From: Cetorhinus maximus
Lineage: Eukaryota
Length of the DNA: 64,000 nucleotides
Assembly: GCF_964194155.1 (NCBI RefSeq)
Contig: NC_135903.1
Coordinates: 31,992,001 to 32,056,000, forward strand
Direction of reading: 5' to 3'
The position numbers and the translations under genes are program-made. The stretch's first letter is position 1, and each line of letters starts with the position of its first letter. Under the pieces are notes generated by a model. The model worked only from the letters and a program-made list of their open reading frames with translations, had not been told where the DNA came from and ran no database searches. Positions 9,796-56,533 of this stretch are shown here, one piece after another.

Positions 9796-11156
9796 CAAGA
9801 TGATGCTGGATTTGCCTGGCTCTTTGTGGTCAGTTCAGGAGATACGTGGGCAATTTTCCACATTGCAGGGTAGCTGCCAGTGTTAAAACTGTACTTGAAC
9901 AGCTTGGCTAAGGGCACAGCTAGTTCTGCTGCATAAGTCTTCAGTACTGTTGCCAGAATATTGTCAGGGCCCATAGCCTTTAGAGTAGCCAGTACCTTCA
10001 GCCTTTTTCATTATATCACATGGAGTGAATTGAATTGGCTGGAGATTGGTATCCGTGAAGTTGAGGACTTCAGGAGGAGGCAGAGATGGATCCCGCACCT
10101 GGCCCTTCTGGCTGAAGATAATTGCAAATGCTTCAGCCTAATCTCATGCAAGAATCCAGAAAATCCAAGGAGCTGTCTTTCTGAAGTGATCAGTATTTTT
10201 GCATCCCAATATCTGGACAAAGGTGGCAACTGAAAGAATATTAAAAAAGGGCTACACTGAATTGATTTATTTTAAGTCTTGTGAGGTTTGTGTACAATAC
10301 ATGGAATGCCAAATAGAATGCTCTAACCTTTGCCACAATTTAAATGAGCTTTGGAAAAAAAAAAGAGTAATTGATATCATTAGTGTCAAAATATTTATTG
10401 TTGAGACCAAAGTGAAAGCACCAAGAGATACTATCTAGGATATAAAGCCAGCTGAAGTTCCAGAAATAAAATATCTGATTCACAGCTTCATTCTAACTAT
10501 AGCCTGGACCTGGTAATAAAATATTCAAATCTCGACAAGTTCATTATTACATGGAATGGCCATCCCGTATTCACATTCTCATTTGATATCTCAGTGCGTT
10601 ACTTCTGCTTTCTTGCTTACAATTATACTCATGCATTGGCAGATATCACTTTAAAAAAGGAGAGAATTTTAACTTTCAAGAATTCTGAGCAGAAACTATT
10701 CTGTGCCAAAGTATTATTGGCAGGGGAATGTCAGGGAATTCTGCCATAAACTTCAATTTAATATACTATATATCTCAAAGGCTATGCTTCATAGTAGAGA
10801 ACATAATCTACAGTGACGATCAAGGTTTTGGTTTGTAAGCTCACCAGGAATGCACGGGGATAAAAAAAAAAATCCCTTTTGCCATCAGGTTTCTGCTTAA
10901 CCCCTCACCCCCCACCCACCCCCTCTACTGGCTTAGAAGAGGTGGTCAGGGGTGGGGTTCAAACACAACTACTGAATATTTTGCTTTTAGCCCTTTAGTT
11001 TACAGTTCAGTGCCAGTAACTGAATATTTTATTTTCAGTGTTTGATGAATGGCACTGACCCACTACATCTTGGCCATGCTTTGAAGACACACACACATAC
11101 ACCCTCATTGCAAACTGAATCTTCCATTAAGTTTCTGTCCTACTCAAAGAATCGAT

Positions 11157-11162
11157 TTTATT
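11157..11162 (-). promoter_or_regulatory. Candidate distal poly(A) signal (AATAAA) of PSME3
   Basis: TTTATT on + strand with upstream TGTA/U-rich context on the minus strand; closes a ~2.7-kb stretch after the PSME3 stop in which I recognised no transposon. Use is not shown. Confidence 0.4.
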
Positions 11163-11292
11163 GTGCTTTGCAGGGAAAGAAAAAGCACTGATTAAAACAT
11201 TGTAAAGAGGTACACGTGGTACTACAGGATTAAGATCAAGCACAGTAACAGCACCATACTGCCACAATAAAGTCACATCTGATTATACCAGT

Positions 11293-11568
11293 GGAAACTT
11301 GTATAGAAGCATGCCAGGTGGTGTCTACAAAATACATTTCTTCAGCTCGGTAAGGACACAGTCATTTCTAACAAAATTAAATTCAACTTGTCAAACTATT
11401 CTTTCGGCTTTTAAAAAGACAACTAAAATATTAAGAAGCTGCCAATCCTAATGCACTGAGTTTGTGTACTGTGTGTTGTGCCATAAAGTGATAGCATCCT
11501 TCTCACTGTGACATGATAGTATGGAAACTTTGTACTTCTTTACAAGGAAGGGTGGGGTTGGAATCAGA
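11293..11568 (+). pseudogene. Diverged duplicate of BECN1 coding exon 3 plus ~210 bp of the following intron
   Basis: Aligns to 50018-50288. Exon part 45/59 identical (reads ETCIEACQVVSTKYISSAR vs ETCLENRPDGVSRKYIPPAR); exact GCTCGGTAAGGA across the donor; exact TGCCATAAAGTGATAG (11479-11494 vs 50201-50216). Confidence 0.88.
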
Positions 11569-13319
11569 TGGGGGCAAATGGCTTGTTCTTGCACACTTCT
11601 TGCTCCCCTACCATTTACTAGAGGAAAACAAGGCTTCCTCATTACATCAAATAGAAGCCAAAGCAATCAGCTGTCTGGGGTCTTTTTTTTTGACAATTCC
11701 AGGCTGCAGAATTCAGTTAAATATGCTTCACTTAGAGAAATACATCTCCTAAATCGTACTTTATATTCATTTGAATGAGTAATGAAAAAACATGTACTCA
11801 TTAGTAGAATGAGAGGTGTTTTCTTTAACTCAGTTGGGTACCCACAGTTCAAGTTATTTATTTTTATTTCTGTGGGTTCTACACTAAAAACCTTTTATTT
11901 TGCAGACATTCATTCTGAAAATTAAGCATTTTAAGTTAGTCAAATGACTCTGGAGGAGTATTCAGCAGTGACACAGAACATCAGAGACACCTGTTACTCA
12001 TAAGAGTGACAGAAATCAACATTAGCAGAAGGGCTCCAGGCCCACAGCCAAGCCACAGATTACTGGGTTAACACTTGCAGCTGTAGAACGCATTTGGAAA
12101 AAATTGAAAGTATGGACATACTGTTAGTTAAAAACAGGCTCTACTGCAAAGATCTATTCAAGTCTGCAGGGAGGGCCATCGGAAGTGCACTCAGGTCCCT
12201 AGGATCCCATGTGGCCTCAATATACAAATCCTTTCAAGATAAATTAGGACAACACTTACATTGTTGAAAACAAAACTAGCTGCAGGAGACAGCTTCCTAC
12301 TAACCCACTGATCAAGTCTGAAGGAGTCAACCATTTTTTAACAGATGTTAAATAGCACTGTTAAAAGTCAGTGCAGTCCTGGCAGAGATAAACCCCACTT
12401 GAAGCTGCTTTTTTTTTTTCAGAAGAGGCCCACATTTCCCCTGGCAAACATCTTCTGCTAATCATGGGCAAGTCACATTATCACCATTTAAAACAATTTT
12501 TCTTTGCTGGAGACTTTAATCTAATGATTTCAGCAGAACGTTTATTTAATAACAAAAGGTTTGCGTTTCTTAGCCACCATCATATTTTAGTACTTCAGTT
12601 GGTTTTGGTTACCCCGATTTTCAGCAAACATTGGTGCAAAGACGGTGGTAAATGATAAGGAAAGAAAACAAGGCAAGTGAATAAAAGCAAACTAATGAAG
12701 AGTTACAAGGACAAATCTTAAATTACAGTTAAAAATGAATTAATCCGTTTTAATTTAATGCCGAATGATTGTATAAACCTAGCAGACTAGCTTGTATGAT
12801 AACAACATCACCTCAACTTTCATGAAGTCACCACATTTTGTTCTGTAGCTCTCAGCGCAATGCTCCTGTAACTGTGCGCTGTGCAGGGTAATCAGGTTAC
12901 AGAATACAAAGTTACTGCATACACCATCAGGCAGAGGTCCCAACACATATTATCTAGGAGGAATGTTTTATTAGGTCTTATATAGTTTTGTAGTAGTCAT
13001 GGTCTGAAAATTGGGCTCACCAGTAAACTTTGATTTTCATTCCTTCCCACGAGTTCTTGACTAATGAGCACAACATTCTCAACCCTTGCAAGATAAGTAG
13101 TGAACAGGGACAGTACTTGGCTAAGTGCAGAGATGGAGTTTAAAAATTGCGAGTGACTTCACAAGAAAAGGAAGCAGAAAAAGTTAAACTGGAGAAATTA
13201 ACGCTCAGTATCCTAATTTAGGGCAATTAGAAAAATCATAGCAATACGTAATTTACGTAGAATTTATAACTTCATTTATCCCCACTATGGAGGTTCACAC
13301 TAAGCATACAGCACAACTT

Positions 13320-13325
13320 TTTATT
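13320..13325 (-). promoter_or_regulatory. Candidate proximal poly(A) signal (AATAAA) of PSME3
   Basis: About 600 nt after the stop codon, followed by GT-rich sequence on the minus strand. Confidence 0.45.
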
Positions 13326-13918
13326 TTAAAAGAACATTTTCAAATACTTCTCTTTAAAAAAAAATGTTCACAGGTGATCAGTGGACAGTCAGTAGGTGTA
13401 CCGTAAAATATGGTGCAATAGGTGCTCCTTTCTACAATTTGCAGCCTGCAAACATGTGGCTGGTGTTCTCTGGGTATTTTCCTGTATGCAAAAGTTGTAC
13501 ATGACTAACCATTTAGCATTTACAGGATATTTTATACATCATCTTTCACGAACTTTAACTTTTTTTTAAGTGAGGGAAGGACGTGAAAGAAACAGAAAAA
13601 TACCATGGTAGGAAATAAAACGTGCCTCTAAACAGAATTTTTTGCTAAGATCACTAATACTGTACATTACAAAGAGATTTGTCAAAGAAAAATGTGAAAG
13701 AATTCCTGAGGATTAAAAACCTCTATACATCACAAAAATAAAAGATGAATGGAAATCCCTTTTCAGCTATTTCACTATAATGCAACGAACTCTGTGCTTC
13801 ATTTTTCAATCCATTCTTTCCATCTCAACAAGACCAATCTCACGTAACAAAGCCAAGGCAATCACGGTCTTATATTTGGGGTTACAAATGTCGGATTCCA
13901 ATTCACGAAGCACACACG

Positions 13919-13999
13919 TTAGTACAGTGCATCTGTGTTGCTGTTCCTGGGTCGTTTGATTTTCTCAATATTTTTGATGATCATGTCATGTAATGTTAC
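13919..13999 (-). CDS. PSME3: PSME3 (PA28-gamma) last coding exon
   Basis: CAG|VTLHDMIIKNIEKIKRPRNSNTDALY* matches the PA28-gamma C-terminus. Confidence 0.96.
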   Translation of the reverse strand, partial: VTLHDMIIKNIEKIKRPRNSNTDALY

Positions 14000-15314
14000 C
14001 TGTTTGGGGGAGGGGCAGGGGGTGGAAATGCGATATTTTAAATTTACAATGTTATTTTTTCTTTGATAACAGCGAGAACAGTAAATTAGTATCTTTGCAT
14101 CTATGGAACCTGGATTCAAATCAAACTAGACTGCTGGGTGAAAGTCTATCACACGTCAAACAACGTAAGCTTGCAGATTTACAACTTGCTGGCTTTGTAC
14201 AGATATTGGAACACATGTTGGCTGTTTTGATGATGCCAAAAGGACAGCCATTGTGAGAAATTGAACAGTTCACACCAATGTAGCAGGAGTCCGCTTTTGA
14301 GTTTTAGAGAAAGGCATATTGTGGTGGCAGAATAGAACAAAGCTGACAACTGACCATAATCTACCTGACCAATGACAACTTATTGCTGACCCTGGTTGCT
14401 GGAAAAAGAAAAGCAAGCTCTACTAAGAAGCTGACCTTCTTGAAAAAAAAAAAGCCAGAATGCTTTTAAGAGTTTATTTTGTGCCTCATTGTATAGTCTC
14501 AGGTCTCTGTCCAACGTATTTGCTCAGGTGAGCAAGAACAGCTTGGACCAATGATTGCGCTGCTTTTCCTGTTTTGGCATCTGTTGGGTACAGTGCATCA
14601 AGGATTCACTCATATGGAGATATTACACTATATCCACTAATTTGATGGTATTGCAATTCTGAGACCCTTAGTGACAAGGAATTCTATTACTCCCATCTAG
14701 AAATCTGCATAGCCTAAAAATATGACTTACCGGTGAAGTGCTCTTTTGTTCATTCAAATGAACAAAGCTGCAGGTACTAGAAAGTGCATGTGGCTCACAT
14801 TTTTGGATACAGGGGCTTCTCGTCGCATTTCCTCTTCAGAGCTATGCACGGAAAGTTGCTTTACATCACTGTTTTGGAGAATAAATCAGCCAAAACTTTA
14901 CTTAATGGGTCGTTTTATATCTAGGTTTTTTTAAAAAAAACCTGAACAATAGATGACCATATAGTTCTAAAACCCAAGCTGCATCATTCACAGAGTGTGA
15001 TGTAAGGGAACTTTAGGAGTACAGTTCTGCAGCAAAAAATGTCCCTCGCTCAACCTCCAACTCTGTGCAATTTGACACCAGCAGATTTAATCAGACTCAA
15101 AAAACCTCTATGGCACCCATGACGTTTTAGTTTCTCGACAGCCAGCAGAGTGAGACTGCTCTCAAATTGAATGGTACCAACAAATATTCAGTGTGACAGG
15201 ACAACAAAAGCAAATTATTCACTTTAGGAGCAAGAATTGAAATTATCTGTCTACCTCTTCCCTCACTTTACGTGCTCAATACAATTTCCAAACCAACATA
15301 TACTGACACGAGTA

Positions 15315-15527
15315 CAAAAGCAAAATGCCGCGGATGCTAGAAATCCCCAGTAGGTTTAGGCAGCAGCTGCAGAGAGAGAAACCGAGTCAATGTTTTAGAT
15401 CAATGAAGCATCAGAATGTTTCGACAGGACGACAAGAGGTCATCGACCAGAAATGTTAACTTTGTTTCTCACTCCTCAGGTGCTGCTAGACCTGCTGAGT
15501 ATTTCCAGCATTTCCTATTTTTACTTT
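15315..15527. mobile_element. Degenerate fold-back element from Penelope 3' ends
   Basis: Both arms resemble 39650-39722 and 41738-41948 (GATGCTG..AGACCTGCTGAG..TTCCAGCA) in inverted orientation. Confidence 0.6.
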
Positions 15528-17056
15528 GACATAGACAAGCTTGAAATAATATCTTGGAAAGGATCGGTGGAGGGTGGAATTGAGAGAGAGGGAGAAAAAC
15601 ACTCAAAGGGTAGAAATTCCTCTCGGGCAGTGGCACAAAACGCGCAGCTGGTTTGACACCAACCATCTTGTGCCATTGCCCAACATGTAATTCTGCATCT
15701 CAAACTTTATAGTTTGGATTTGCTAGGTTTCTTTCCAGCAAGTTGGATATCTGAAATACAGTAAAAGTCAAGTTTAGGAGCCTCTAAATTGAGACTGAGA
15801 AATCTCTACAGATAGTTTGTTTGCCCAATCTGGACGTGTGCATATTCCATCCCATTCATTCAAGTCCAGGTAGCTTAAACAAAATTTGGTACATCATGGC
15901 TCAGGGTAGTGGAGTAACTAATGGCTCAGGGTAGTGGAGTAGCTTGGAGTTTAACCAATCAAAATCATACAGCACATCACTGTAGAACTGGTAAACTTCC
16001 TATTTCTTGCCCAGCCAAGGTCATCTTACTGACTAGGGTAATGGTTTGCATGGTTATGTGAAACTCATTAGGAAGAATCCCAACAGGTTTAACACGAAAA
16101 GAATTACTGGGGAAGCAGAGTGATTAGATTAGTCAATTAATGAATGTGTCAATCTCAGGTATTGCATTACAGAATCTAAGAGGGTAAACTGTGTTCTTGG
16201 TTCTGAATTTTCATTGGCAGGCATGTGATTTTGAAGCCCTCTTAACCCTAAAGCAACCAGCTTATTTCTCTTGCTATCAGGAGGAGGGTCACTAGTCATG
16301 AGGCAATAGGCAGTGATTAAAAAACGTTTTCACTTTGCACTTAAACGCTACCAAGTGCTGCCATGCGTGTATCAGATGGGAGACTTATTTTATACTGTCC
16401 TCAACGATGACTTGCCAACAACATGTTTCACCATGTTGGTATGAATTCACGATATCCCATACTAGTCATCCTTGGAACTTCTCAAGTTCAGACTGTAGTG
16501 GATTGATCACCATTAGGAATTGGACTGAAACTGCCCATTTCACTTCAGTCTTCAATTAGCAGAGAAGAATATTCATCCAGTCAGTCAATCTGGATTAAAT
16601 TTGGGCCCAGGTTGTAACACAAAAGGACATCTATATCGTTGGACTTTTAATAACCATATAATTAGTGTTAGCAATGTATTTGAAAAGTTGATAAAGCCAG
16701 GTTCCTTATGTAGGTGTTTAGAGTTCTTTAACCAATATCATGATCAAAGTTAACATACATAGGTTTCGGTTTTGAGAGAAAGGAAAAAGCACACTGCACC
16801 ACAGAGGACTGGAACAATGATATGCACCTGCAATTATCCACAGGGGAAATTCCCCACACTCTACTATGAAAGGAGAGCACCCAGCCCACATCAGGACATG
16901 TCCCCAGTGAAGCCCAGGAGAAGTTATTATGCAGCAGAAGTCATTGCCTTTACTGGAGAAACATTTAAAAAAAAAGTGGGCAAAGAAGTGAAAAAAAATA
17001 CAAGAGATCACTGTCATGATTAGATCATCGTACATCTGTGCTGATTTTATACTTAC

Positions 17057-36207: not shown

Positions 36208-36594
36208 CACAACCGCCCTACCCCACAACCGCCCTACCCCACAACCGCCCTACCCCACAACCGCCCTACCCCACAACCGCCCTACCCCACAACCGCCCTA
36301 CCCCACAACCGCCCTACCCCACAACCGCCCTACCCCACAACCGCCCTACCCCACAACCGCCCTACCCCACAACCGCCCTACCCCACAACCGCCCTACCCC
36401 ACAACCGCCCTACCCCACAACCGCCCTACCCCACAACCGCCCTACCCCACAACCGCCCTACCCCACAACCGCCCTACCCCACAACCGCCCTACCCCACAA
36501 CCGCCCTACCCCACAACCGCCCTACCCCACAACCGCCCTACCCCACAACCGCCCTACCCCACAACCGCCCTACCCCACAACCGCCCTACCCCAC
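36208..36594. repeat. Perfect minisatellite, 24 x 16 bp (ACAACCGCCCTACCCC)
   Basis: Units counted from 36209 to 36592; no variant unit seen. Confidence 0.97.
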
Positions 36595-36901: not shown

Positions 36902-37049
36902 CTAAAGAGAGAAATAAAACAAGTTATTTCATGGCTAGTGTAATTTGAAAAATATGCCACAATATTACAAGGACTTTCAAACAGGGATTCCTGGATCCTA
37001 TGTGCAAAGATCTGATTTCTAAGAATCTTTCATCAGATTTCAGTTGAAG

Positions 37050-38373
37050 GAACATAGCAACAGGACCGTTTAGTCTCTAGAGCCTGTTCTGCCACTCAGT
37101 GAGATCATGACTGCTCTGTGGCCTAACTCCATATGCCCACCTTTTCCCCACATCCCTTCGGTCAACAGAAATACCTCAATCTCAGATTTAAAATGAACAA
37201 CTAATCAATTGCTATTTGCAAAGAGAGTTCCAAACTTCTATCCACATTTACATATATAAAGGTTCCCTAAATTCACTCCTCAGAGGCCTGGCTCTTTGAC
37301 AACGCCCCTTAGTCCCAGACTCTCCAGAGGAAACGGGTTCTCTCTATCTATCCCATTGATTCCTCTTAATATCTCAATCTTTGATCAAAAAACCCCTCTA
37401 ATTCTTTTCAATTCCAAGGAACACAACCCCAGTTTGTAGAATTTCTCCTCGCAATTTAACCCAGGCATCATTCTGATGAATCTACATTGCATTCTCTCCA
37501 AGGGCAATGTGTCCTTCCAAAGAGATGCTGTCTGCTCACAGCACTCCATATGTGATATAACCAGGGCTTTGTACAGCTGTAGCATAACCTCCCCCTCCCA
37601 TGCATTCTAGGCCTGTAGATATTAAAGGCTAGCATTCCATTAGCCTTTTTGATTACTTTCTGTATCTGTCCATGACATCTTATCTATGTACGCGGACCTC
37701 CCCATCCCCCAAGTCTTTTTGGACCTCCACTATTTCTCACTTTTCACCATTTGGCCCATTGTGTCTGCACCAGCTCTCAGAACGAGCAACTCACCTAATG
37801 CTACCCCCCAACCGTCTCCCTGTAACCCTGCACATTCTTGCTTTTCAGGTAACCGTCTAATTCCCTTTTGAATGCTTCAAATGAATCTGCCTCCACCATA
37901 CTCTCAGGCAATGCATTCCAAATCTTAAATCACCGTTCTATACTTTTAGGTCCAAAGTGGATGAACTCATGTTTGCATACATTGAAATTCTTTCATCACT
38001 GTTTTTCTCATTCACCTAATCTATTAAAATCTCTCTGCAATTTTATGTCAGTCTGCTTATCTCAATCCACACGGAAATTAAAACCCCACATTAAAACCAC
38101 ACTGCCTTTGCTACACGATTGTCTAATCTGTGTGTTTAGACATTCTAACACTTCAGAACTACCATCAGAAGGCCTATATACAACTCCCATTAGACTCTTA
38201 AATCTACTTATAAAGTCTCCACTACATGCGTAACTCGTTATATTCTCTCTTCTCATTGATGTGGATTTCCTCCTTCACACTAAGGTGATTACTGCCCCTC
38301 TACAATTTTCTTTATCTTTCCTGTAGACCTTATAATCTATTATGTTTACTTCTCAGTTCTGACCCAGTCAATC
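37050..38373 (-). mobile_element. Decayed CR1 LINE fragments
   Basis: MLQLYKALVISHME..LERMQCRFIRMMPGL and MGVVYRP..GSVVLMWGFNF peptides. Confidence 0.7.
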
Positions 38374-38386
38374 TGGCATTAATTCT

Positions 38387-39722
38387 ACCTCGACTACAGC
38401 TCCTCACACCTCGCTTCCTGTAAGGACTCCATCCCATTCTCTCAGTTCCTTCGCCTCCATCGCATCTGTTCTGATGATGCTATCTTCAAAAACAGTTACT
38501 CTGACATGTCCTCCTTCTTCCTTAACCAAGGTTTTCCACTCACGGTCGTTGATAGGGCCCTCAACCGTGTCCTGCCCATCTTCCTCACATCCGCCCTCAT
38601 GCCTTCTCCTATCTCCCAGAAACATGATAGGGTCCCCCTTGTCCTCACTTATCACCCCACCAGCCTCCGCATTCAAAGGATCATCCTCCGCCATTTCCGC
38701 CAACTCCAGCATGATGCCACCACCAAACACATCTTCCCTTCACCCCCCTGGCAGCATTCCGTAGGGATCGTTCCCTCCAGGACACCCTGGACCACTCCTC
38801 CATCACCCCCTACTCCTCAACCCCCACCTATGGCACCTCTCCATGCCCACGCAGAAGATGCAACACCTGCCCCTTCGCTTCCTCTCTCCTCACCGTCCAA
38901 GGGCCCAAACACTTCTTTCAAGTGAAGCAGCATTTCACTTGCACTTCCCCTAACTTAGTCTACTGCATTCGTTGCTCCCAATGCGGTCTCCTCTACATTG
39001 GAGAGACCAAACATAAACTGGGCGACCGCTTTGCAGAACACCTGCGGTCTGTCCGCAAGAAAGACCTAAACCTCCCTGTCGCTTGCCATTTTAACACTCC
39101 ACCCTGCTCTCTTGCCCACATGTCAGTCCTTGGCTTGCTGCATTGTTCCAGTGAAGCCCAACGCAAACTGGAGGAACAGCACCTCATCTTCCGACTAGGC
39201 ACTTTACAGCCTTCTGGACTGAATACTGAATTCAACAACTTTAGATCTTGAACTCCCTCCTCCATCCCCACCCCCTTTCCGTTTCTTCCCCCTCCCTTTT
39301 GTTTTTTCCAATAATTTATATAGATTTTTCTTTTCCCACCTATTTCCATTATTTTTAAATCTATACCTGTAATGCCCTGTCAGTCTTTCCATCCCACCCC
39401 CACTAGAGCTGTACATTGAGTGTCCTGCCATCCATTCTTAATTAGCACATTCTCTTAGATAATGTCACCACCTTTAACACCTTTGTTCCTTTGTCTGTGA
39501 CATCTTTTGATTATCTGCTCCTATTACTGCTCGCTTGTCCCTACAACCACCCCCACCCCCCAACTTCTCTCCCCCCCACCCTAAACCAGCTTATATTTCA
39601 CCCCTTTCCTAATTTTACTCAGTTCTGTTGAAGGGTCACGAGGACTCGAAACGTCAACTCTTTTCTTCTCCGCCGATGCTGCCAGACCTGCTGAGTTTTT
39701 CCAGGTAATTCTGTTTTTGTTT
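38387..39722 (+). mobile_element. Penelope-like retroelement (family A), 5'-truncated, open GIY-YIG endonuclease domain
   Basis: NLVYCIRCSQCGLLYIGETKHKLGDRFAEHLRSVRK...VACHFN...RKLEEQHLIFRLGTLQPSGLN; upstream RVPLVLTYHP linker and C-x4-C-x2-C; 13-bp TSD TGGCATTAATTCT at 38374-38386 and 39723-39735. Confidence 0.92.
39621..39659 (+). ncRNA. Minimal type I hammerhead ribozyme motif, probably inactive (A6U)
   Basis: AGTT-CTGTTGA-A-GGGTC-ACGAG-GACTC-GAAAC-GTC-AACT: helix I AGUU/AACU, helix II GGGUC/GACUC, GUC triplet. Confidence 0.6.
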
Positions 39723-39816
39723 TGGCATTAATTCTTATTTGTCGATCTACTGGGGTCCTAACAATAAATGCATTGTTCTCCTTTGGATAGCCAATAACAT
39801 CTTCCAGAAAGGAGTA

Positions 39817-40204
39817 CAGTAAAATTTCTATTATCTGGCATGCACAGTGAATGGATGGTGCTAGTTAATCAAAAATGCTGTCTACCTAAGAATTCCACAT
39901 GTTCAACCAATCGGAAAGCTCCTAGGTGATCTCGCGATGACGTGGGCGTTGAGGTGCTGTGAGAGGTGTGGGAGACAGTGAATCTAGTGAACGGTGCTGA
40001 GGGAACACAGTGAAAGGCTGTGGATAACTACCGGTGATTTTGACATTCCTTAGCAGTTCTGAAAGAGTGGGACTGGCAGGGATCAAGCGTCAGAGTCAGC
40101 TTCTGAGGGACGAGAGACATCTCCAGTCAAAAACAGACCCCACAGAAATTCTGGTCAGTACAGAATTCCAGTTGGTAGGGTGCCGAATAACAAAACGTTT
40201 ACTG
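39817..40204. mobile_element. Tigger/pogo-like MITE
   Basis: TA|CAGTAAAATTTCTATTATCTGGCA ... TGCCGAATAACAAAACGTTTACTG|TA: imperfect ~24-bp TIRs with TA TSD. Confidence 0.7.
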
Positions 40205-41084
40205 TACAAGGGTCCCAAGGAATACAACAATATTTCTGAGGGCTCAACCATAAATAGATTTGAAAACCACTGCAGTACATGAAGTACCTTAAATAGCTGC
40301 CAGCAATATAAAAAGCATGTGATGATGGTATGAGCATGACATATTTCAGGGCTTTAGAAGGGTTTAGTGTCCACTCTTTAAATGGGAGATATAGCTGATT
40401 GTAGAGTAAGCATGTGATGCCCCTAAAAATAAATGCAAAGTCTGGGGCAATTAATGAATTACAGTGATTTGTAGAGGGCAGTGTCAAATGGACAGTTGTT
40501 TAATTATTTGTGAATATCAAATACTTCTGAAAATTTATACATTGATCCTAGTTTTGTTAGGAAGCTAACGGTGGAGGAACAGAATGCTGAAATTGAGAAA
40601 AATTACAATTAGAGTTGACAAGAACCAACGGTAAATATTTAGGAGACAACATAAATGCAGAAGATTTGGCATTAAAATAAATGGCAGTGAGCCATGGGTT
40701 TGAGTTAAAGATTTTTGCTTTATAATCTTCTGTAACAGCTGTAGTTTTTTGAATATTGATTTAGGATTTAACAAATGAACGTTTATCACATCCTAATGTA
40801 GAACTGACAACTTTAAACATATTATAGAAAGTGTACTAGCCATAACCAATATATTTATGAGTCTAATTATTTTTGAATAGGGTAGAAATTCAAGCAATTC
40901 AACACAAGTTTGAGTTTATGATGCCAGAAATCGTGAAAAAAGACTAACCTTAAGAACTCTGGGGGTCAGCAAAAGTTGGTGGGAAAAGGCCAGTACCACA
41001 AATTACCTTCCTTCCCTTACACACTGCCTTGATCTGACTAATAATGAGCCCTTGATACATTTCTGCTTCTTGGGGTTGGGGGGG

Positions 41085-41705
41085 CTACCATTGATCAGAA
41101 ACTGAACCGGACCAGCCATATAAATACTGCGACTACAAGAGTAGGTCAGAGGCTGGGAATTCTGCAGAGAGTAACTCCTCTCCTGACTCCCCAAACATAT
41201 CCACCAGGTACAAGTCAGGAGTGTGATGGAATACTATTCACTTGCCTGGATGAGTACAGTTCCAACAACACAAGAAGCTGGACACCATCCAACACAAAAC
41301 AGCCCACTTGACTGACACCCCATCTGCCACCTTAAATATTTACTCCCCCAACCACTAACGCACAGTGGCTGCAGAGTGTACAGGATGCACTGCAGCTACA
41401 CACCAAGGCTCCTTCGACAGCACCTTGCAAACCCGTAACTTCTGCCACCTAGAAGGACAAGGGCAGCAGGTGTATTGGAACACTACCACCTGCAAGGTCC
41501 CCTCAAAGCCACCCAACATTCTGACTTGGAAATATATCACTGTTCCTTCCGTGTCGCTGGGTCAAAATCCTGGAACTCCCTTCCTAACAGCACTGTGGAT
41601 GTACCTACACCACACGGACCGCAACAGTTCAAGAAGGTAGCTCCCCACCATCTCCTAAAGAATGCTGGCCTAGCCAGCACCACCCACATCCTGTGAAAGA
41701 ATAAA
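41085..41705 (+). mobile_element. CR1 LINE 3' fragment
   Basis: Reverse complement of the 3826-4596 family; VAGSKSWNSLPNS..QFKKVAPHHLLK. Confidence 0.85.
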
Positions 41706-41732
41706 ACAAACCTAAAAACACCATGGCAAATA

Positions 41733-41948
41733 TTATAAAAATAAAAATACCTGGAAAAACTCAGCAGGTCTGACAGCATCTGCGGAGAGGAACACAATTA
41801 ACGTTTCGAGTCCATATGACTCTTCAACAAAACAGTCATACGGACTTGAAACGTTAACTGTATTCCTCTACGCAGATGCTGTCAGACCTGCTGAGTTTTT
41901 CCAGGTATTTTTATTTTGGATTTCCAGCATCCGCAGTTTTTTGCTTTT
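41733..41948. mobile_element. Fold-back mini-element of two inverted Penelope 3' ends
   Basis: ~83-bp near-perfect inverted arms (41738-41821, 41834-41917); 10-bp TSD ATGGCAAATA at 41723-41732 and 41949-41958. Confidence 0.88.
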
Positions 41949-42070
41949 ATGGCAAATAATATTACTGGGTCAGCAATTCTACAGATTGGAAGTAAATGAG
42001 AACAATCCAGTATTCTACATATCCCAGATAATATTTATTTGCAGTTAAGTGCCTTAAAGTTATACAATTA

Positions 42071-44215
42071 TTGCACGGGAATATAGCAGGAAAGACAGTG
42101 GAACAGCAATGGCAGGAGTTTCTGGGAGTAATTTGGGAGACACAGCAAAAATTCATCCCTAGGAAGAAGAAGCATACTAAAGGGAGGACGAGGCAACCAT
42201 GGCTGACAAGGGAAGTCAGGGACAGCATAAAAGCTAAAGAGAAAGCATACCATGCGGCGAAGAGCATTGGGAAACCAGGGGATTGGGAAGCCTACAAAGA
42301 CCAACAGAGGTCAACTAAAAAAGAAATAAGGAGGGAGAAGGTTAAATATGAGGGTAAACTAGCCAGTAGTATAAAAGAAGATTGCAAGAGTTTTTTTTAG
42401 ATATATAAAGGGTAAGAGAGAGGCAAAAGTGGACATTGGGCCGCTGGAAAATGATGCTGGAGAAGTAGTAGTGGGGAACAAAGAAATGGCGGAGGAACTG
42501 AATAGGTACTTTGCGTCAGTCTTCACAGTGGAAGACACGAGTGACATCCCCAAAGTTCAAGAGAGTCAGGGGGCAGAGGTGAGTATGGTGGCCATTACCA
42601 AGGAGAAGGTGCTAGGAAAACTGAAAGATCTGAAAGTGGATAAATCACCTGGACCAGATGGATTACACCCCAGAATTCTGAAGGAGATAGCTGAAGAGAT
42701 AGTGGAGGCGTTAGTGGTAATCTTTCAGGAATCACTGGAGTCAGGGAGGGTCCCAGAGGACTGGAAAATCGCTAATGTAACCCCCCTGTTTAAGAAGGGA
42801 GTGAGGCAAAAGACGGGAAATTACAGGCCGATCAGCCTGACGTCAGTCGTTGGTAAGATTTTAGAGTCCATTATTAAGGATGAGATTTCAGAATACTTGG
42901 AAGTGCATGGTAAAATCGGGCAAAGTCAGCATGGTTTCATCAAGGGGAGGTCATGCCCGACAAATCTGTTAGAATTCTTTGAGGAGGTAATGAGTAGGTT
43001 AGACAAAGGAGAGCCAATGGATGTTACCTACTTGGACTTCCAGAAGGCCTTTGACAAGGTGCCGCACAGGAGGCTGCTCAGTAAGATAAGAGCCAGCCCA
43101 TGGTGTTAGAGGCAAGGTACTAGCATAGATAGAAGATTGGCTGTCTGGCAGGAGGCAGAGAGTGGGGATAAGGGGGTCCTTCTCAGGATGGCGGCCGGTG
43201 ACTAGTGGAGTTCCGCAGGGGTCAGTGTTGGGACCACAACTTTTCACTTTATACATTAATGATCTAGATGAAGGAACTGATGGCATCCTGGCTAAGTTTG
43301 CAGATGACACAAAGATAGGTGGAGGGACAGGTAGTATTGAGGAGGCGGGGCGGCTGCAGAAGGATTTGGACAGGTTAGGAGAATGAGCAAAGAAGTGGCA
43401 GATGGAATACAACGTAGGGAAGTGTAAGGTCATGCACTTTGGTAGGAAGAATAGAGACATGGACTATTTCCTAAATGGGGAGAGAATTCAGAAATCTGGA
43501 GTGCAAAGGGACTTGGGAGTCCTAGCCCAGGATTCTCTTAAGGTTAACTAGCAGGTTGAGTCGGTAGTTAGGAAGGCAAATGCAATGTTGGCATTTATTT
43601 TGAGAGGACTAGAATATAAAAGCAGGGATGTGCTGCTGAGGCTTTATAAGGCACTGGTCAGACCACATTTAGAATATAGTGAGCAATTTTGGGCCCTGTA
43701 TCTCAGGAAAGATGTGCTGGCCCCGGAGAGGGTCCAGAGGAGGTTCATGAGAATGATCCCAGGAACGAAAGGCTTAACATAAGAGGAACGTTTGAGGACT
43801 CTGGGTCTATACTCGATGGAGTTTAGAAGGATGAGGGGGGATCTGATTGAAACTTACAGAATACTGAAAGGCCTGGATAGAGTGAACGTGGGGAAGATGT
43901 TTCCATTAGTAGGAGAGACTAGGACTCAAGGGCACAGCCTCAGAGTAAAGGGAAGACCTTTTAGAACAGAGATGAGGAGAAACTTCTTTAGCCAGAGGGT
44001 GGTGAATCTATGGAATTCATTGCCACAGAAGGCTGTGGAGGCCAGGTCATTGAGTGTATTTAAGACCGAGATAGATAGGTTCTTGATTGGTTAGGGGATC
44101 AAATGTTACGGGGAGAAGGTGGGAGAATGGGGTTGAGAAACTTATCAGCCATGATTGAAGGGTGGAGCAGACTCGATAGGCTGATTGGCCTAATTTCTGC
44201 TCCCATGTCTTATGG
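42071..44215 (+). mobile_element. Relatively young 5'-truncated CR1 LINE (RT domain, few disablements)
   Basis: ORFs 42071-44094: [62 protein letters not shown]; possible AATTA TSD (42066-42070, 44216-44220). Confidence 0.93.
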
Positions 44216-45260
44216 AATTACGGCATAGAAACAGGCCATGCAACTGGTCTGTTAGTTTTTATGCTCCACAGAAGCCTCCTTCTGGCCCTACTTTATCTAA
44301 CACCTTCAGCATTTCCTTCTATTCTTTTCTGCTATTCGTAACTACTCCATGCAGCAACAATTTCCATATATGATCATCCTCTGGATAAACAAGTTTCTCC
44401 TGAATTCCTTACTAGATTTATTAGTGACTACCTTGTCCCCTAGCTTCGGACTCCCCAAGTGCCTTATAAACCTTCATCCTTAACTTATCCCCTTGGCTTG
44501 CCTCATTCTACATTGTGCACCTGCTCAACACCTTGCCATCTTCACTGTTGCAAATCTTAGCTCTGAAATAACTGGTAGCAGAATCATTAACCACCATATC
44601 CCTGCATTTCCTAAACTCGTACATCATGGTTCATAACTCTATAAGAGACAAGCTTGGGCAAAATGCCTGCAGAAGTCAATTCCATCTCAGCAAGAAGTCA
44701 AAACTTAGGTTCCCCGAGAGCCTGGAAAATGAATGCCTGCAACAGCTTACAGCTGATTTAACACACCTTATATGAGAGTGAGTTCTGACAACAGGAATGG
44801 GGAGTTTGGGGAGAAAGAGATGGGAGTTTACTGGAGGCATTGCTGAAGAGTTATTTTGAGACTCCTGAAAGAGGGGAGATGGAGTAAATGTGAGGAAGAT
44901 AATAGTTTCAATTGTGCCATCACTATTATGAGCAAAAAAATGAAGCATATCCCATTTTAATGAAATCCCCCCCCCCAAACAAGATGAAATGTTTTAAGAT
45001 GACAAACAAAACTGCCATACATTTAAAAAGCCTGTGCCTCCTAAAGTGCCAGATTAGTGCCACAAACAGGTGCCTCTAGGGTGACAAAAAGTAGGTTCAG
45101 TGGGGGCGGGGGGGGTGGATAACAAACCATATGTGTTTGCTATTCCCAGTGTTGTTATTCTAGGTCAATAAATAAAGCCAGAAGGATAATGTCTGGACTA
45201 AAAACAGAAAACGCTGGAAAAACTCAGCAGGTCTGACCGCATCTGTGGAGAGAGAAAGAG

Positions 45261-45299
45261 AGTTAACGTTTCGAGTCTACATGGCCCTTCTTCAGAACC
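45261..45299 (-). ncRNA. Minimal type I hammerhead ribozyme motif with intact core, in a Penelope 3'-end fragment (45199-45299)
   Basis: Minus strand reads GGTT-CTGAAGA-A-GGGCC-ATGTA-GACTC-GAAAC-GTT-AACT; palindromic AACGTT at helix III; one mismatch in helix II. Confidence 0.62.
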
Positions 45300-45350
45300 A
45301 AAGAGATGCTAACGTCTGGGCTGGGAGCAAACCCACATGTAGCTGCAGGC

Positions 45351-45550
45351 NNNNNNNNNNNNNNNNNNNNNNNNNNNNNNNNNNNNNNNNNNNNNNNNNN
45401 NNNNNNNNNNNNNNNNNNNNNNNNNNNNNNNNNNNNNNNNNNNNNNNNNNNNNNNNNNNNNNNNNNNNNNNNNNNNNNNNNNNNNNNNNNNNNNNNNNNN
45501 NNNNNNNNNNNNNNNNNNNNNNNNNNNNNNNNNNNNNNNNNNNNNNNNNN
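45351..45550. other. Assembly gap (200 N), probably covering PSME3 exon 1, the BECN1 5' exon and the shared promoter
   Basis: Run of Ns between the divergent genes; no MASLLKV-like PSME3 exon 1 found in 36902-45350. Confidence 0.85.
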
Positions 45551-46757
45551 GCCGCAGGCACCTTCCCCCCTTGACTGGACTGCACAGGAAACAAGGTCTT
45601 ACCACTGTCTCCCTCTCAACGTTTGCTTTGTTTCCCACCGCATGTTATGCTCAGTGTTTTCATGAGGCAGCAGATCAATAGGCTTCAGCCTTTCTCCCCG
45701 CCCTGGGAATAGCAGCTTTATTGTCTTTTACGGAGGGGAGGGAAATCAGTCAGTGTTCCAGGTTGAGGAAACAAAACGCTGACAGTATCTGAAAGGTTAA
45801 TGTTTCAGTGGGATCTTTGATTAGATAAGGAGATGGGAGAACGTGTAACTAAGTTGACAACATCAAAATTTACTGATGACTAAGCCGGCATTTTCAGAAT
45901 TTTATGTTTGTATAATTTTTAAAGTTCCAGTAATTATGATTTTTTTTTTAACCTCTTAAATAATGGGGATGTAAGGTTGAGGAGCTGTATCTTTTTCTTG
46001 AAGGCACTTTGAAGTCACTAGCAGTAATGTTGACTTTAATAGATTCTGACCAAAACTGTAGCTGCCATTTACTCTCCATCATCAGAAATTTTTGGTGGCA
46101 TGGGATATTTGTGAGTGTTTTGTGGGTGGGAAGGGATGGCGATCTTCTGTTGGAACATCATGCTGGCTGGTAGGTCTAGATTATGCTCTTCATACCAGTT
46201 TATCATACTGTTTCTGTCTGCTTTAATCCCTACCTAACTCACATGCTCTCTACGTCTTAAAAATGCCCTGTATTTCCCTCGTTATGTCTCCTATTATCTC
46301 ATGTTGACATCACTTCAGTCATTGAACCGTCTTCTGTTTTCCATTTAAGCTGATTATAGGTCATTTTACTTTGTGTATGCACATGATTTATTCACCTTTT
46401 TCCCTTTGCTTTGTTCGTTTTTAGATGCTGTGTAGATCTCAGATCTGATGATGCATCTAGGATCAAATTGTTAACTTATTCTCTGCACAAATACTGACTT
46501 GACCTGTTTAGTGCCTCCAGCATTTTCTTTTTGTTTCATATAGACAGCCTCTGTAATTTTTTCCTTTGTGTTTTCATGCTTAATCAGTAGTGTTGATTGT
46601 AATTAGGGAGAATTCATGTAGAACCTTCCCATAGTTTAGTTAGACAGGGAGAGTCCATGATGGGCAAATTTATATCTGGTCTGTAGTAGGGATGGTGTTG
46701 GTGGGCCAAAACATTATATATTATTCCATGCTTTCTCACCTTTGTTCTTGTATAGAT

Positions 46758-46884
46758 ATGGAGGGGTCAAAGTCTTCAAGCTCCACCATGCAAGTAAGCT
46801 TTGTGTGCCAGCGCTGTAGTCAACCCCTAAAGCTGGATACATCCTTCAATGTCTTGGATAGAGTGACAATTCAGGAACTTACAG
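46758..46884 (+). CDS. BECN1: BECN1 coding exon 1
   Basis: Acceptor TAG ends at 46755, ATG at 46758: [42 protein letters not shown](A)|GTATGC. Confidence 0.97.
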
Positions 46885-46919
46885 GTATGCAGTTGTAATA
46901 ACTACTGTTTCATTATTAT

Positions 46920-47345
46920 TAGCTGTGGCTTAATTGGCTGCACTCTTGCCTCAGCAGGTTGTGGATTCAAGTTGCACTCCAGAGACTTGAGTAGAAAATC
47001 TGACTGACACTCCGATGCAGTAACGAGAGTGTGCTGTACTATTAGAGGTGCTGTTTTTTGGATGAGACGTTAAACCATTGCTCCATTTACAAAAGATCCC
47101 ATGAAATTATTTGGAAGAAGTGTACAGGAGTTCACTCCGACGTTCTTTTCAATATTTATCTCTCAAATCAAAATCCTAAAAACAGATTATCTGGTGATGA
47201 TCACATTGCTGTGCTGTGTGAAAAATGTCTGCTGTGTTTCTTACATGACAAGAGTGACTACAATTCAAAAGTACTTTATTGGCTGTAAAGTGCTTTCAGA
47301 TGTCCGGTGGTGAAAGGTGCTATATATATGCAAATCTTTCTTTAT
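46920..47345 (+). mobile_element. Near full-length Deu-domain SINE (SacSINE1-like)
   Basis: tRNA-like head (TGGCTTAATTGG A box, GGATTCAAGT B box), Deu core GATGAGACGTTAAACC..AAAGATCCCATG, tail TATATATGCAAATCTTTCTTT. Confidence 0.75.
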
Positions 47346-49079
47346 TATTGACAATATTAGTTAAGAGCTTAATTTTTGCTCCAGTAAGTTGGAATTAATA
47401 GGACAATAGTGCCCCACAAATGTAAAATTATGCACCATCTTTTTTCAAATAATTTTATTTGCCTTGCAGCCAGTGTCATTCTTTTAAACTTGCTTATATC
47501 TAAACAAAAAGTTGCCTGACTAAACTTGATCAAATTTAACAATACTCAACAGTCTGTTCAAAATGTTGTTTTATTTCTGTAATATACTGATAGGTCAGCC
47601 ACCTCATTGCTCACGGGAAGTTGTAGGATATATCGATGTCTAACTTGTCCATGTTGCTGGTAGTATTTTTGTGCACTGACATTGTGTCTGTTTTTTCTTT
47701 ATGTTGATTGGGTGAGACAAAGTGTGAATAGAGTTGAACTGAAACTGAAGGCTTGCAATAGAAAGGAAATTCAGAAAGGCTATGGTAGTGTAGCTCAGGA
47801 GTAGTGGGATGTTGTGGATAGAGCCTGAGACCATAGACGTGCAGTGGTAGTAGTCGGAATGCCAGGAATGAGCAGAAAGGTTATGTTGTGATAGGACCTG
47901 AGTATAGTTAGGAGGGGGAGCAAGGCATTTATAGCAAGTGTGGAGGAGGTGCCAGACTGCAATGGGAAAGCATAGGGTGCAGCAATGATGGGTTAACCTT
48001 TGGATGTTGGCATATTGGGGGAAATGTTTTCTGGTTGTGAGACTACTAGGAGATGGGAACAATGGGAGAGAGGAGAGGGCTATGGGATCTAGTAATCCTT
48101 CCTAAATTCATCCCACACTCTTGTTTCTTTCCACCACCAGCTTTTGTGAGTTTCCAGCCTTGAATTGGGAAGACTATTTAAAATACTAGCCTAAATAATT
48201 CTATGCACTTGGTAACAACAACCAACTTATATAGTACTTTAAAAAAACTGTCTCAAGGCACTTGATGAGCCAAGGGGGATATTAGTGACAAAAGGTGGGT
48301 TTGGAGGCAAGGAGGAAGATGCAGGGGTTCAGAAAGGGAATTCTAGAGTCTAGGGCCTAGTGACTGAAACAATGGTGGGAGAAGGGAAATAGGGAGAACT
48401 GAGAAGGCTACAAAGCTGAGGACATTGAGCCTATGGAGAGATTTAAACACAGGATGAGAATTTTAATTTGGAGGTGTTGAGTCCAGACACTGCCCACCAA
48501 GGTAGGATGATGGGTGAACAAGGCCTTGTATGGGATAGAATACAGAGAATGCTATTTAGGACTGGACTTTGGCAAAGCGAGCATTGAAATAATCAAGTAT
48601 GGAGTTGAGAAAAGCATGGCTGAGGATTTCAGAGATAGGCTGACATATGAGCAGATGGTACTGTGCTGAACAGTGCCAGCCAGCTTTGAGACAGAACTGG
48701 GAGTTTTGAATCAGAGGTAAAGGTAATAAATAGATATGTTTAATATGTGTGACAGAGCAGCACGCTAGAATTAGCATTACACAAAGTGTTCTGTACAAGT
48801 TTCACAATATACCAGCTCAATGAACTGCTCTACTGAAGCACGAGTCATGACCATAGCAACACTACCTTGAGATAGATGGTTCTTAGATAGTTGCTCAGCT
48901 TTATGCAAGATTTTTAGTATATGATGTCTCCCTTTATTCCTCCTTCCAATGTATTCTAATTAACCAAGTACTAGATGATATTATATGGATCATCAAAACT
49001 TATCACTTCCATAGGGAAATCAAAAAATGTTTAAAAACATTAAAAGACCAGATAAGGCAAAAGTTTTGTTTTTTTTCAG

Positions 49080-49147
49080 CTCCTTTAGTTACAGTTACTC
49101 CTGTAAAACCAGAAGAAGGCAGGGTGGAGAACAGCAGCTTACCAGAG
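49080..49147 (+). CDS. BECN1: BECN1 coding exon 2
   Basis: CAG|(A)PLVTVTPVKPEEGRVENSSLPE|GTAAGA, 68 nt; phases fit. Confidence 0.92.
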
Positions 49148-49544
49148 GTAAGAACTGAGCTAGATAACTATAAATAAATTTCATAATACAAGTATTTAAT
49201 TTTATTCACTGTGCACCCAGCTTTTATTTAATTGTTAAATATTCTGGTATGTTGTGTGTTGTTGATGTATGCTGAATGCTTCATGTTCTGGGATTGTGCC
49301 ATTTATAGGATGCATTGGGAACCTCATTGCCTGGGTGTAGTAGTGCTTTGCAGCTGCTTTATGATGCAACCAGAAATAGTAAGTTTCCATTGCACTTTCC
49401 AAGTAGATCCAGTTTTTTTTTTGTAGAATTGGTACTCCTAGGGGAGGGATTTGCTTCAAATTCAAGTTAGGGAGCAGCTGGAAAAATGTAAAAAGTTCAA
49501 AATAACTGCAGCTTAAGTAGCATTCTCAGTTTTGCCCAATAGAA

Positions 49545-49850
49545 CAGCAGAATGAAGGAGTGCTGTGTTGTCGGAGGTGTCATTAAAAGTGGCAACTGAA
49601 TGTCAAAGATCCCATGACACTGTCAGGAGAAGAACAGGGGACTCTTTCAGTAATCTGGACTATGTTTCTCCCTCTACTAATGCCACCAGAACAAATTAAT
49701 GAGTCATTCATCCAGTTGTATTTTGTGGGATCTCAATTTGTGTAAAGTGGTTCAGCTACATGACAATAACTGTATTTCAAAGTAGTTCATCAGGTGAAGT
49801 GCTGAGGGATGTTTCAGAATTGTGATAAGGAGCTATGTAAATAGTTATTT
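49545..49850 (+). mobile_element. Deu-domain SINE fragment
   Basis: GTGCTGTGTTGTCGGAGGTG..AAAGATCCCATGACACT..GAAGAACAGGG core. Confidence 0.65.
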
Positions 49851-50018
49851 TCTCATCAACAATTTTTAGGGTATTATTTTAGTGCCCTTTTTTCTATAAG
49901 TACCTCATTTCATGTCAGTTCCACAAAATATTATTTCTGTTTTTAAAAAAATATGGTTGCACAAAACATGCAACAGTTAATTTTCATTTTGATTTAATTG
50001 AAGATGCTTTATTTTCAG

Positions 50019-50077
50019 GAAACTTGTTTGGAAAACAGGCCAGATGGTGTGTCAAGAAAATACATTCCGCCTGCTCG
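50019..50077 (+). CDS. BECN1: BECN1 coding exon 3
   Basis: CAG|ETCLENRPDGVSRKYIPPA(R)|GTAAGG, 59 nt. Confidence 0.95.
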
Positions 50078-51148
50078 GTAAGGATACATAATTTAATTTG
50101 CTTCATAGCTCACCAAGTTATAACTTATTTTGGCTTTAAAAGGGCAATTAATATATTAAGCTGGCGATGCTGATGGACTGAATTTGTGTTCCATGTGCTC
50201 TGCCATAAAGTGATAGAATTTCCCCTCACTGCTACATGATAAGCGTGGAAGCTTTGTTCTTCTTCACTAGAAGGGATGGAAAATCAGAGGCCAGGTTTTG
50301 CCACTGGCTTAAGAATGGTGTTTGTATAGGCCTAGAGCCAGGTCGCTTTATGACTTCTTAACCAAAGACTTGACTTGAGGGAAGAAAAATAAATTGAGCA
50401 AGTTGATGTTGTGCATTACTCTGCAATGTAGTAAAACAGTTGAGTTTTCAAAACTATTAGCATTTTAGTTGCCATTTGTGGTTTGATAGTCACTTTCAGA
50501 ATAGCCCTGATGTCTAATTGAGTAATTGTATTGCACATTGTGGTGCTGAGCTGCAAAAGTCAAAAAGGTCCTAGGTTTGATTCTTGTGTTGACAGGTAAT
50601 TTGCTATTTATTCTCTGCACCATTAGAATGAGGAAGTGTGCTTGCTTACTTATTGTAAACCACTGACCTCTGGTGGAAGTGAGAATATGTCTAAACATAT
50701 GTTGAAGACAGGACATGGCTTTGTTGTGATACAGCTGTTGACTAGCCATACTTGCCTTAAAAGGAGTACAGAAGTTCACTAGACTGATAGGTGGGATGAG
50801 GGGGTTGACTAGACTGGGAGTAGATTTCTTTGAGTTTAGAATGAGAGGTAATCTAATTGAAACAGGTAAAATGCTTAAGGGACGTCACAGGGTAGATGTT
50901 TGAAGGATGTTTCCCCTGGGTGTAGAGTCTAAAACTAGGGATCATCGACTCAGACTCAGACTACAGGGTCAGCCATTTAGAACCGTGATGAGAAGAAATT
51001 TCTTCACTAAAAGGGTTGTGATCTTTAGAATTATCCACCACAGCGAGGTATGGATGCTCAGATATTTAATATATTCAAGACTGAGATTGACAGATTTTTG
51101 AATAAGGGAATCGAGGGATATGGAGTTGGTGTGGGATGATGGAGTTCA

Positions 51149-52476: not shown

Positions 52477-52965
52477 GAGTTCAAGCAAAAGATCAGCCAT
52501 GATTTTTATTGAATGGTACAGCAGGCTTGAGGGGCCCTGTTTATGATGTACATTGTTCTAGTTCACCAATGAACTTTCATTTACATTTTATATTTTGCAT
52601 TTCAAAGTGCTTCATATATAAGTTACTTTGAAGTGCCATATCTGTTATGTCATCAAACAGTATATTTTGGAATTTTATCCCACCAATAGAAATTAGGGAA
52701 GAAGAGAAAATTGGGGGGGTGTGGAAAAAGTTTACCTCTCCCTTGTTCTTATTCCCTTTAACCATACACAAAGAAAGCAACTTTACTCTAGTATGTATGC
52801 ATAGATTTTATTGTAATAGTTTACAATGAAGTTATGAAATAATGTCAAATGATGGAAAATTATAATTTCAAACTATAAAACAGGCTTATAATTTTAAAAA
52901 AATGTTTTCTCCAAAGACTTTAATCATCTGGTTAATTTAGTTAAGTTTATCGGATTATCTGTGAG

Positions 52966-53642
<677 letters not shown>

Positions 53643-55791: not shown

Positions 55792-55929
<138 letters not shown>

Positions 55930-55969
55930 TAGGTTATTAACGCTATTTCTATTGTATTCCAAAATATAC

Positions 55970-56533
55970 GGGCGGAATTTTGTCGTCGGTATGTGGGGGC
56001 GAGCCCTGCATACTGACGCATTAAATGACACGCGGTGATGTCGGTCGTGCGTCCTGACGTCATTCCAATCTTCCATTCGTGCATGCCCGCTGAACTGTCA
56101 AAGGCCTGTTAAGGCCATTAATAAACTAATTAAACTAATTCTGAACGCTGCCTGTCCAACCTTAAGGCTGGCGGGCAGGCGAAGAGCCCAAGTGGCCTTC
56201 ACCTTTTTCGTGAAACCTCATCCACAGGCGGAATGAGGTTTCATGAAGTTTTTATTAAATTAATAAATATTTTTTAAACATTTCATAAATGTTCCAGCTC
56301 ATGTGATACTGTCACATGAGGGGACATGTGTAAATGATTTTTAGCTTTCTTTATTTCGAACTTTAAATCTGAACTAAATCTCCGAGGCAGATAGTGCTAC
56401 TGGGCGTGGGTCACACTGGGCGGGCCTTAATTGGCCCACCCATGTAAAATGCCAGCGCGCAGCCGATTGCAGGCGGCGATCGGCTCTGTGCCCGCTCCCA
56501 ACCGGCCTGCCCGACAGACAGAAGATTCTGCCC
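55970..56533. mobile_element. PIF/Harbinger-like MITE, inverted homolog of 30544-31185
   Basis: TIRs GGGCGGAATTTT...AAGATTCTGCCC; CCTGTCCAACCTTAAGGCTGGCGGGCAGG is nearly the reverse complement of 30955-30985. Confidence 0.8.

Follow-up and report, generated by a model that had tools for sequence, protein, structure and literature searches.

A decayed copy of a BECN1 exon, splice donor and intron segment, antisense in the long 3' UTR of the neighbouring PSME3 gene of the basking shark, is most likely a neutral relic

Introduction

BECN1 and PSME3 lie head to head in the window analysed here, a stretch of 64,000 nt from the basking shark Cetorhinus maximus (NCBI RefSeq assembly GCF_964194155.1, contig NC_135903.1, positions 31,992,001 to 32,056,000, forward strand). 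A first reading of this DNA, made from its letters alone and called the sequence-only reading below, had pointed to a block downstream of the PSME3 stop that resembles a BECN1 exon, its donor and part of the following intron, in antisense orientation to PSME3. It was proposed that a long PSME3 mRNA would pair with the BECN1 donor and that alternative polyadenylation of PSME3 could thereby tune an autophagy gene, while the block might equally be a neutral relic. Which of the two is it, and how did a piece of one gene come to lie in the tail of its partner?

Results

The copy and its source

The source gene and the copied block comprise the following features:

46758-64000, plus strand: BECN1 coding region, running past the window end (translation; tblastn).
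50019-50077, plus strand: BECN1 coding exon 3, 59 nt, the source (translation; tblastn; joints with exons 2 and 4 in RNA contigs).
50078-50288, plus strand: copied part of BECN1 intron 3, the source (global alignment; it diverges like its flanks).
11294-11349, plus strand: degenerate copy of coding exon 3 of BECN1, lying antisense within PSME3 mRNA (45 matches to the 59 nt of 50019-50077; frame broken by 3 gap columns).
11350-11568, plus strand: copied intron 3 donor of BECN1 with the 211 nt at the start of that intron (matches to 50078-50288 in 158 of 203 aligned columns).

The translated BECN1 exons of the window match a protein labelled as basking shark (P0016). Comparing the window with itself by blastn aligned 11293-11552 with 50018-50275 on the same strand (72% over 271 columns, E 2e-28), and the local score of copy against source was 644, while 100 dinucleotide shuffles reached at most 208. 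In a global alignment of 11294-11568 with 50019-50288, 203 of the 259 aligned columns match, about 78% identity at a K2P distance of 0.26, and 27 further columns are gaps; the distal block of the intron part matches in 98 of 126 columns. One exact run of 12 nt spans the donor (11345/50073), and another of 16 nt lies within the intron (11479/50201). The collinear match that the sequence-only reading had drawn by hand was thus recovered by both methods, and its exon count and both exact runs returned with the same values.

Homology past about 11584/50310 did not rise above shuffles (33 of 100 as good), nor did homology reaching BECN1 exon 1 (71 of 200 as good), and a longer alignment between copy and BECN1 was rejected as an artefact of loose scoring. 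A whole-genome search with the copy, by a DNA search that skips very common words, returned two matches, the copy itself and BECN1, as had been expected of a block with BECN1 as its sole strong partner. The reciprocal search from BECN1 found repeats only outside the copied block. No Rfam family reached its gathering score in the window, and one sub-threshold match lies outside the block. We conclude that the copy is real and single-copy.

A long PSME3 3' UTR carries the copy

Four features on the minus strand describe the host transcript:

13920-36901, minus strand: PSME3 coding exons 2-11, stop at 13920 (tblastn with shark PSME3 proteins).
10254-13919, minus strand: long PSME3 3' UTR containing the copy (contigs 11132-13995 in run X5 and 10276-13995 in X7, both with the 13995-17053 joint; contig 10254-13999 in X3).
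11157-11162, minus strand: AATAAA with a weak hint of use (the X5 contig ends 25 nt past it).
10266-10271, minus strand: distal AATAAA with a weak hint of use (the X3 contig ends 12 nt past it; the X7 contig ends at 10276).

From the PSME3 stop to the copy, on the opposite strand, we measured 2352 nt, in agreement with the earlier estimate of about 2.4 kb, and the minus-strand AATAAA named in the same reading (the first of the two above) is found in the sequence. Runs X3 (species A, which is this species), X5 (species B) and X7 (species C) were treated as RNA because their contigs are spliced and leave introns uncovered; the intron bin 16024-16274 has no cover in any of the four runs. In X5, a single contig of 3320 nt carries the PSME3 joint 13995-17053 (CT..AC) and extends to 11132, and in X7 a single contig of 4348 nt with the same joint extends to 10276. 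The X3 contig, 3745 nt long, spans 10254-13999 with 0 other letters, and an abutting second contig holds the joint. Since contigs themselves show no strand, the minus strand of the UTR is read from the CT..AC joint. The copy lies within the long PSME3 3' UTR in three of four runs; the fourth, X19 (species D), has no UTR cover under the record filter that applies.

The long PSME3 3' UTR therefore carries a stretch antisense to the BECN1 exon 3 donor. The PSME3 coverage that the regulatory proposal needs exists, with spliced contigs of X5 and X7 crossing the copy and that of X3 adjoining a spliced one, and the adverse case in which all PSME3 transcripts stop proximally does not hold, as the contigs continue past the copy to 11132, 10276 and 10254. 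On its minus strand, the 3.7-kb UTR (10254-13919) has 10 AATAAA and 3 ATTAAA motifs, and the contig ends give a weak hint that both distal poly(A) signals are in use.

PSME3 exon 1 was not found within 36950-46757 and probably lies, together with the shared promoter, in the N gap 45351-45550; because the exon is placed inside this gap, the promoter common to PSME3 and BECN1 was not itself seen. Several further observations concern this gene. Minus-strand positions 14779-14835, in the final intron, resemble, at 79% over 19 aa, the alternative C-terminal end of one PSME3 isoform from Heterodontus and might be a conserved alternative last exon. A perfect tandem array with a 64-nt period occupies 36208-36594 within a PSME3 intron. 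Contigs C1273 and C2281 hold PA28 family exon matches with identical scores, probably from a paralogue or a duplicated haplotype. Finally, species B (X5) shows 20 T>C versus 8 A>G at 10380-13995, which may reflect strand-biased mutation or editing, two causes that only B's own DNA would separate. With regard to A-to-I editing, the X3 UTR contig agrees with the genome in every letter, yet contigs hide rare variants, and the T>C changes of B and C are possible species differences.

Age of the copy

Copy and BECN1 are 7.4 to 8.9 times as far apart as the intron sequence of species A is from that of species C or D. In addition, the copy has an isoleucine codon where the BECN1 genes of A, C and D have leucine codons, and isoleucine stands at that residue in the aligned BECN1 proteins of Heptranchias, Hypanus, Mustelus and mammals. 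From the distance ratio and the isoleucine codon it follows that the copy probably predates these species by a wide margin; on this estimate the insertion would date back about eight times as far as the divergence of the four sampled species, and the copy may be common to distant sharks. The retention of 78% identity over 8-9 times the species-split time is long for junk and is a counterpoint to a neutral reading. Shark genomes are described as slowly evolving, a statement made for the elephant shark (PMC5381603).

Origin: an RNA template or a DNA duplication

Three uncertain features flank the copy:

11275-11293, plus strand: possible remnant of the BECN1 exon 2 end adjoining the exon 3 copy (anchored extension, equalled in 1 and 4 of 979 controls under two strict scorings, in 121-122 of 979 under loose ones).
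11565-11592, plus strand: LINE-3'-tail-like right edge (13.5 bits on a tail profile, reached in 8 of 784 control windows).
10985-11038, plus strand: possible remnants of the intron 1 acceptor and exon 2 start (10985-11007; 5 of 302 controls) and of the intron 2 end (11017-11038; 1 of 302 controls).

All of these edge signals were noticed post hoc and stand near the 1% level. Similarity starts at the first base of exon 3, and anchored extension into intron 2 at the left edge found nothing under any of four scorings, while extension into the end of exon 2 gave the first feature listed. At the right edge, BECN1's own flank reaches 7.7 bits on the same tail profile, which was built from 29 loci with L034, L035 and L045 left out, their upstream part being different; nhmmer did not report the tail there. 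The sequence of the copy has no poly(A) tail. The sequence-only reading had denied that the block is a processed pseudogene. In the strict sense this stands, as an intron segment is kept, namely 211 nt of BECN1 intron 3; a retained intron is also one mark of a semi-processed retrocopy, and with a left edge that falls where exons 2 and 3 meet and a LINE-tail-like right edge such an origin is possible.

A second BECN1 fragment in the genome is of interest here. On contig C22, an internal, spliced fragment (L003:1388-1787), 95-100% identical to four exons, is fused directly to a LINE 3' tail. As a whole (L003:1388-1835, near 44.65 Mb) it is a young processed fragment with a stop and a LINE tail but no poly(A), and likely a template-switch chimera. 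Its tail occurs at no fewer than 40 places in the genome, and at one of these the ORF upstream shares 43% identity with a reverse transcriptase that carries PF00078. The LINE ORF was named through a homologue with PF00078, searches of Pfam and PDB having left it without a name. From the tail repeat, we take the LINE to be a CR1 element. The repeat is a non-LTR tail, and CR1 and L2 are described as prevalent in the elephant shark (PMC5381603). According to current understanding, LINEs of this kind require their own 3' end for priming (PMC3747384), so that host RNA would be copied by template switching.

For the block in PSME3 we lean, by a narrow preference, towards an RNA template copied by a LINE rather than a local DNA duplication. 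In this scenario the reverse transcriptase of a LINE, having initiated synthesis on the LINE's own 3' tail, would have jumped to a nascent BECN1 transcript that had already lost intron 2 and still contained intron 3. A half-spliced template of this kind, tethered at the locus, would explain a landing site 39 kb from the source, and this is the basis of our preference. An intronic poly(A) isoform ending in intron 3 was considered as the template and set aside; contigs of X3 and X7 have no intron 3 cover, an absence that in contigs proves nothing.

Only a little less probable is the same neutral relic with an origin at the DNA level, in which a local duplication or template switch took up the exon 2 start, the intron 2 end, exon 3 and intron 3, followed by a deletion and the arrival of the 255-nt segment 11039-11293. 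Copy and source share their orientation at a distance of 39 kb, the segment begins and ends with the same five bases, and within 10985-11038 the possible remnants of the intron 1 acceptor/exon 2 start and of the end of intron 2 are adjacent and in order. The terminal 11-mer of BECN1 intron 2 occurs twice in 164 kb, near the copy and in BECN1, and the match at 11017-11038 argues against a spliced template. However, this scenario requires an insertion exactly at the acceptor/exon boundary, and a source of the inserted segment was found neither in the genome nor in the 164 kb nearby. Moreover, a query joining the parts did not outscore a single part (8 of 310), the 91 kb leftward hold no larger duplicated block or BECN1 exon remnant, and the tail-like right edge would be left unexplained. 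A large tandem duplication of PSME3 and 5' BECN1 was considered and rejected, as the 110 matches in the 91 kb leftward form no collinear chain and tblastn found no BECN1 exon there.

Does the PSME3 tail act on BECN1 splicing?

A functional antisense would work as follows: the long PSME3 UTR would pair with nascent BECN1 pre-mRNA, mask the exon 3 donor and lower BECN1 through frameshift and decay, so that poly(A) choice in PSME3 would tune autophagy. Several facts speak for it. The antisense stretch is present in spliced PSME3 contigs, several poly(A) signals lie on both sides of the copy, the donor is spanned by 12 Watson-Crick pairs, or 16 including G-U, and the predicted duplex of -246 kcal/mol is strong in absolute terms. 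Donor masking by an antisense RNA is also known, as described for ZEB2-AS1 (PMC5838512).

If the pairing had been kept, both partners should bear traces of it, and we found none. For BECN1, where DNA-like runs covering 49860-50740 in one piece were compared, the copied intron part has 6 substitutions in 211 positions versus 19 in 611 of flanking intron in species C (Fisher p 1.0) and 8/211 versus 21/611 in species D (p 0.83). These totals assign 3 (X11) and 4 (X16) substitutions without a listed position to the flanks; the listed sites alone give 9/211 in the block and 23/573 in the flanks (p 0.84). On the PSME3 side, species B has 5/275 in the copy versus 59/2589 in the rest of the UTR (p 0.83) among the substitutions listed, a count in which the ordered changes up to 12062 are taken as complete and 40 of 163 are listed. 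For species C, where the total and the changes common to species B are the ones listed, the whole UTR has 111/3720 versus 25/822 in the intron (p 0.91).

The individual changes tell the same story. In 15 of the 16 between-species substitutions, the column is one in which the base of one species equals that of the paralogue, and as far as the data reach none of the 16 is compensated within the same species. Column 11509/50232 differs in both the copy of A and the BECN1 of D, whose own copy has no cover. In C and D, BECN1 has a 7-nt deletion at 50187, midway through the best-matching block, while the copy of C is covered at full depth at the counterpart, 11465-11471; the BECN1 of D also carries a base change within the 16-nt run (50215). 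Transitions compatible with G-U pairing (16) are not favoured over incompatible ones (20). The earlier suggestion to examine the duplex brought no support either: its predicted energy of -246.3 kcal/mol compares with -246.0 +/- 10.7 when mismatches are swapped at random, and 91 of 200 such duplexes were as stable. Run lengths are at chance level, as the longest run reached 16 nt or more with a probability of 0.49 in shuffles, and a run of 12 or more at the set site has a probability of 0.11, or 0.51 with the BECN1 side held fixed as donor and exon end.

As to BECN1 splicing, contigs of X3 and X7 have exon 2-3-4 joints only and no cover of intron 3, although rare forms are lost in contigs and the stretch covered could not have revealed a joint of exon 2 to exon 4. 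Exon 3 alone is missing from none of the 17 aligned cartilaginous-fish BECN1 records, a protein set from which decay-prone forms would be absent; the short forms among them are missing exons further on, and two models from chimaeras deviate in the region of exons 2-3. As a separate observation, BECN1 isoforms of 398-399 aa in sharks and rays skip coding exons 7 or 8 (49 or 50 residues), and the exon 7 skip is common to two mammalian records.

Among these close relatives, selection does not appear to keep the pairing. The species sampled differ by 2-3.5%, each test rests on 5 to 9 changes and has little power, weak selection is possible, and the sample holds no distant shark, ray or chimaera; the tests nevertheless agree in their direction. 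For the same reason, the earlier call for a comparison with related species is answered in part: the copy is present in three of them, while at 2-3.5% divergence this presence does not amount to conservation.

Discussion

Taken together, the copy is most likely neutral, an old functionless passenger that is transcribed antisense in the PSME3 3' UTR; we put the probability of this reading at roughly 0.8. It would have arisen by a single insertion, long before the sampled species parted, after which copy and BECN1 source would have drifted apart with no selection to stay paired, while PSME3 transcription would read through to the distal poly(A) signals. Of the two possibilities with which we began, the neutral relic fits best. 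Neutral-rate divergence, which the sequence-only reading had itself set against regulation, is seen on both copies, and its proposal that the UTR tunes BECN1 splicing is not borne out: rates are neutral on both sides, changes and a deletion stand uncompensated, and a G-U bias is lacking. We thus regard the functional antisense as improbable. Slightly more doubtful still is the complete chain of events in which a LINE captured half-spliced nascent BECN1 RNA and placed it in the PSME3 tail, the long PSME3 mRNA masks the BECN1 donor and poly(A) choice sets the level of an autophagy gene in sharks. Some pairing of PSME3 and BECN1 RNA may nevertheless occur without selection, the genes being neighbours. 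An ordinary interspersed repeat or an unrecognised structured RNA at both sites is barely credible and, within the sensitivity of the genome searches, refuted, for although old repeats lie close by in BECN1 introns 2 and 3 (49552-49856, 50744-50816), the block has one genomic partner, includes a coding exon and is without an Rfam match at gathering score.

In its anatomy, the neutral copy comes closest to semi-processed pseudogenes and to antisense retrocopy sequence in host UTRs. The TMF1 insertion in CYBB, described as a semi-processed pseudogene (PMC4151081), is likewise a truncated copy whose end falls within an intron that was kept, and it too runs in the opposite direction to the gene whose transcription unit contains it. 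However, the TMF1 copy is described as made by L1, with a poly(A) tail and on a different chromosome, whereas the shark copy has no poly(A) and a possible LINE tail, its host is the neighbour of its source, and the evidence for its putative spliced joint is weak. In human, 69 coding transcripts are reported as candidates for retrocopy-derived trans-NATs (PMC7290577), which, as described there, similarly hold gene-derived sequence on the opposite strand of a host mRNA, mostly in UTRs; unlike these, the shark copy includes a donor and an intron segment, and its host is the head-to-head partner 39 kb away.

Complementarity to a 5' splice site is shared with ZEB2-AS1 and with AC021224.1, a retrocopy-derived, trans-acting antisense to hnRNPA1 put forward as a bioinformatic proposal (PMC5838512). 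ZEB2-AS1, as presented in that source, overlaps its own target gene and pairs perfectly, while the shark copy is 78% identical, has a longest exact run of 16 nt and bears no signal of selection. Class 2 templated sequence insertions are a further likeness, being short insertions that derive from a transcript or a locus and lack a poly(A) tail, although the experimental inserts described came from distant and not from nearby regions (PMC5110952). What is unusual about the copy is its placement within the head-to-head partner of its source gene. A literature search found nothing on a PSME3-BECN1 head-to-head arrangement, bidirectional promoter or antisense in the mostly open-access texts it reached.

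If true, the regulatory reading would join proteasome activation to autophagy via one UTR; the evidence is against it. The copy may serve as a dating marker, and together with the LINE-tailed BECN1 fragment on contig C22 it points to LINE template switching as a process that copies internal pieces of host RNA in shark genomes. As a relic, it is a natural experiment in which 275 nt of a coding mRNA transcribed 39 kb away are 78% complementary to the donor region of its partner, and evolution has seemingly been indifferent to it. The relic thus bears on how much complementarity an antisense RNA needs in order to matter.
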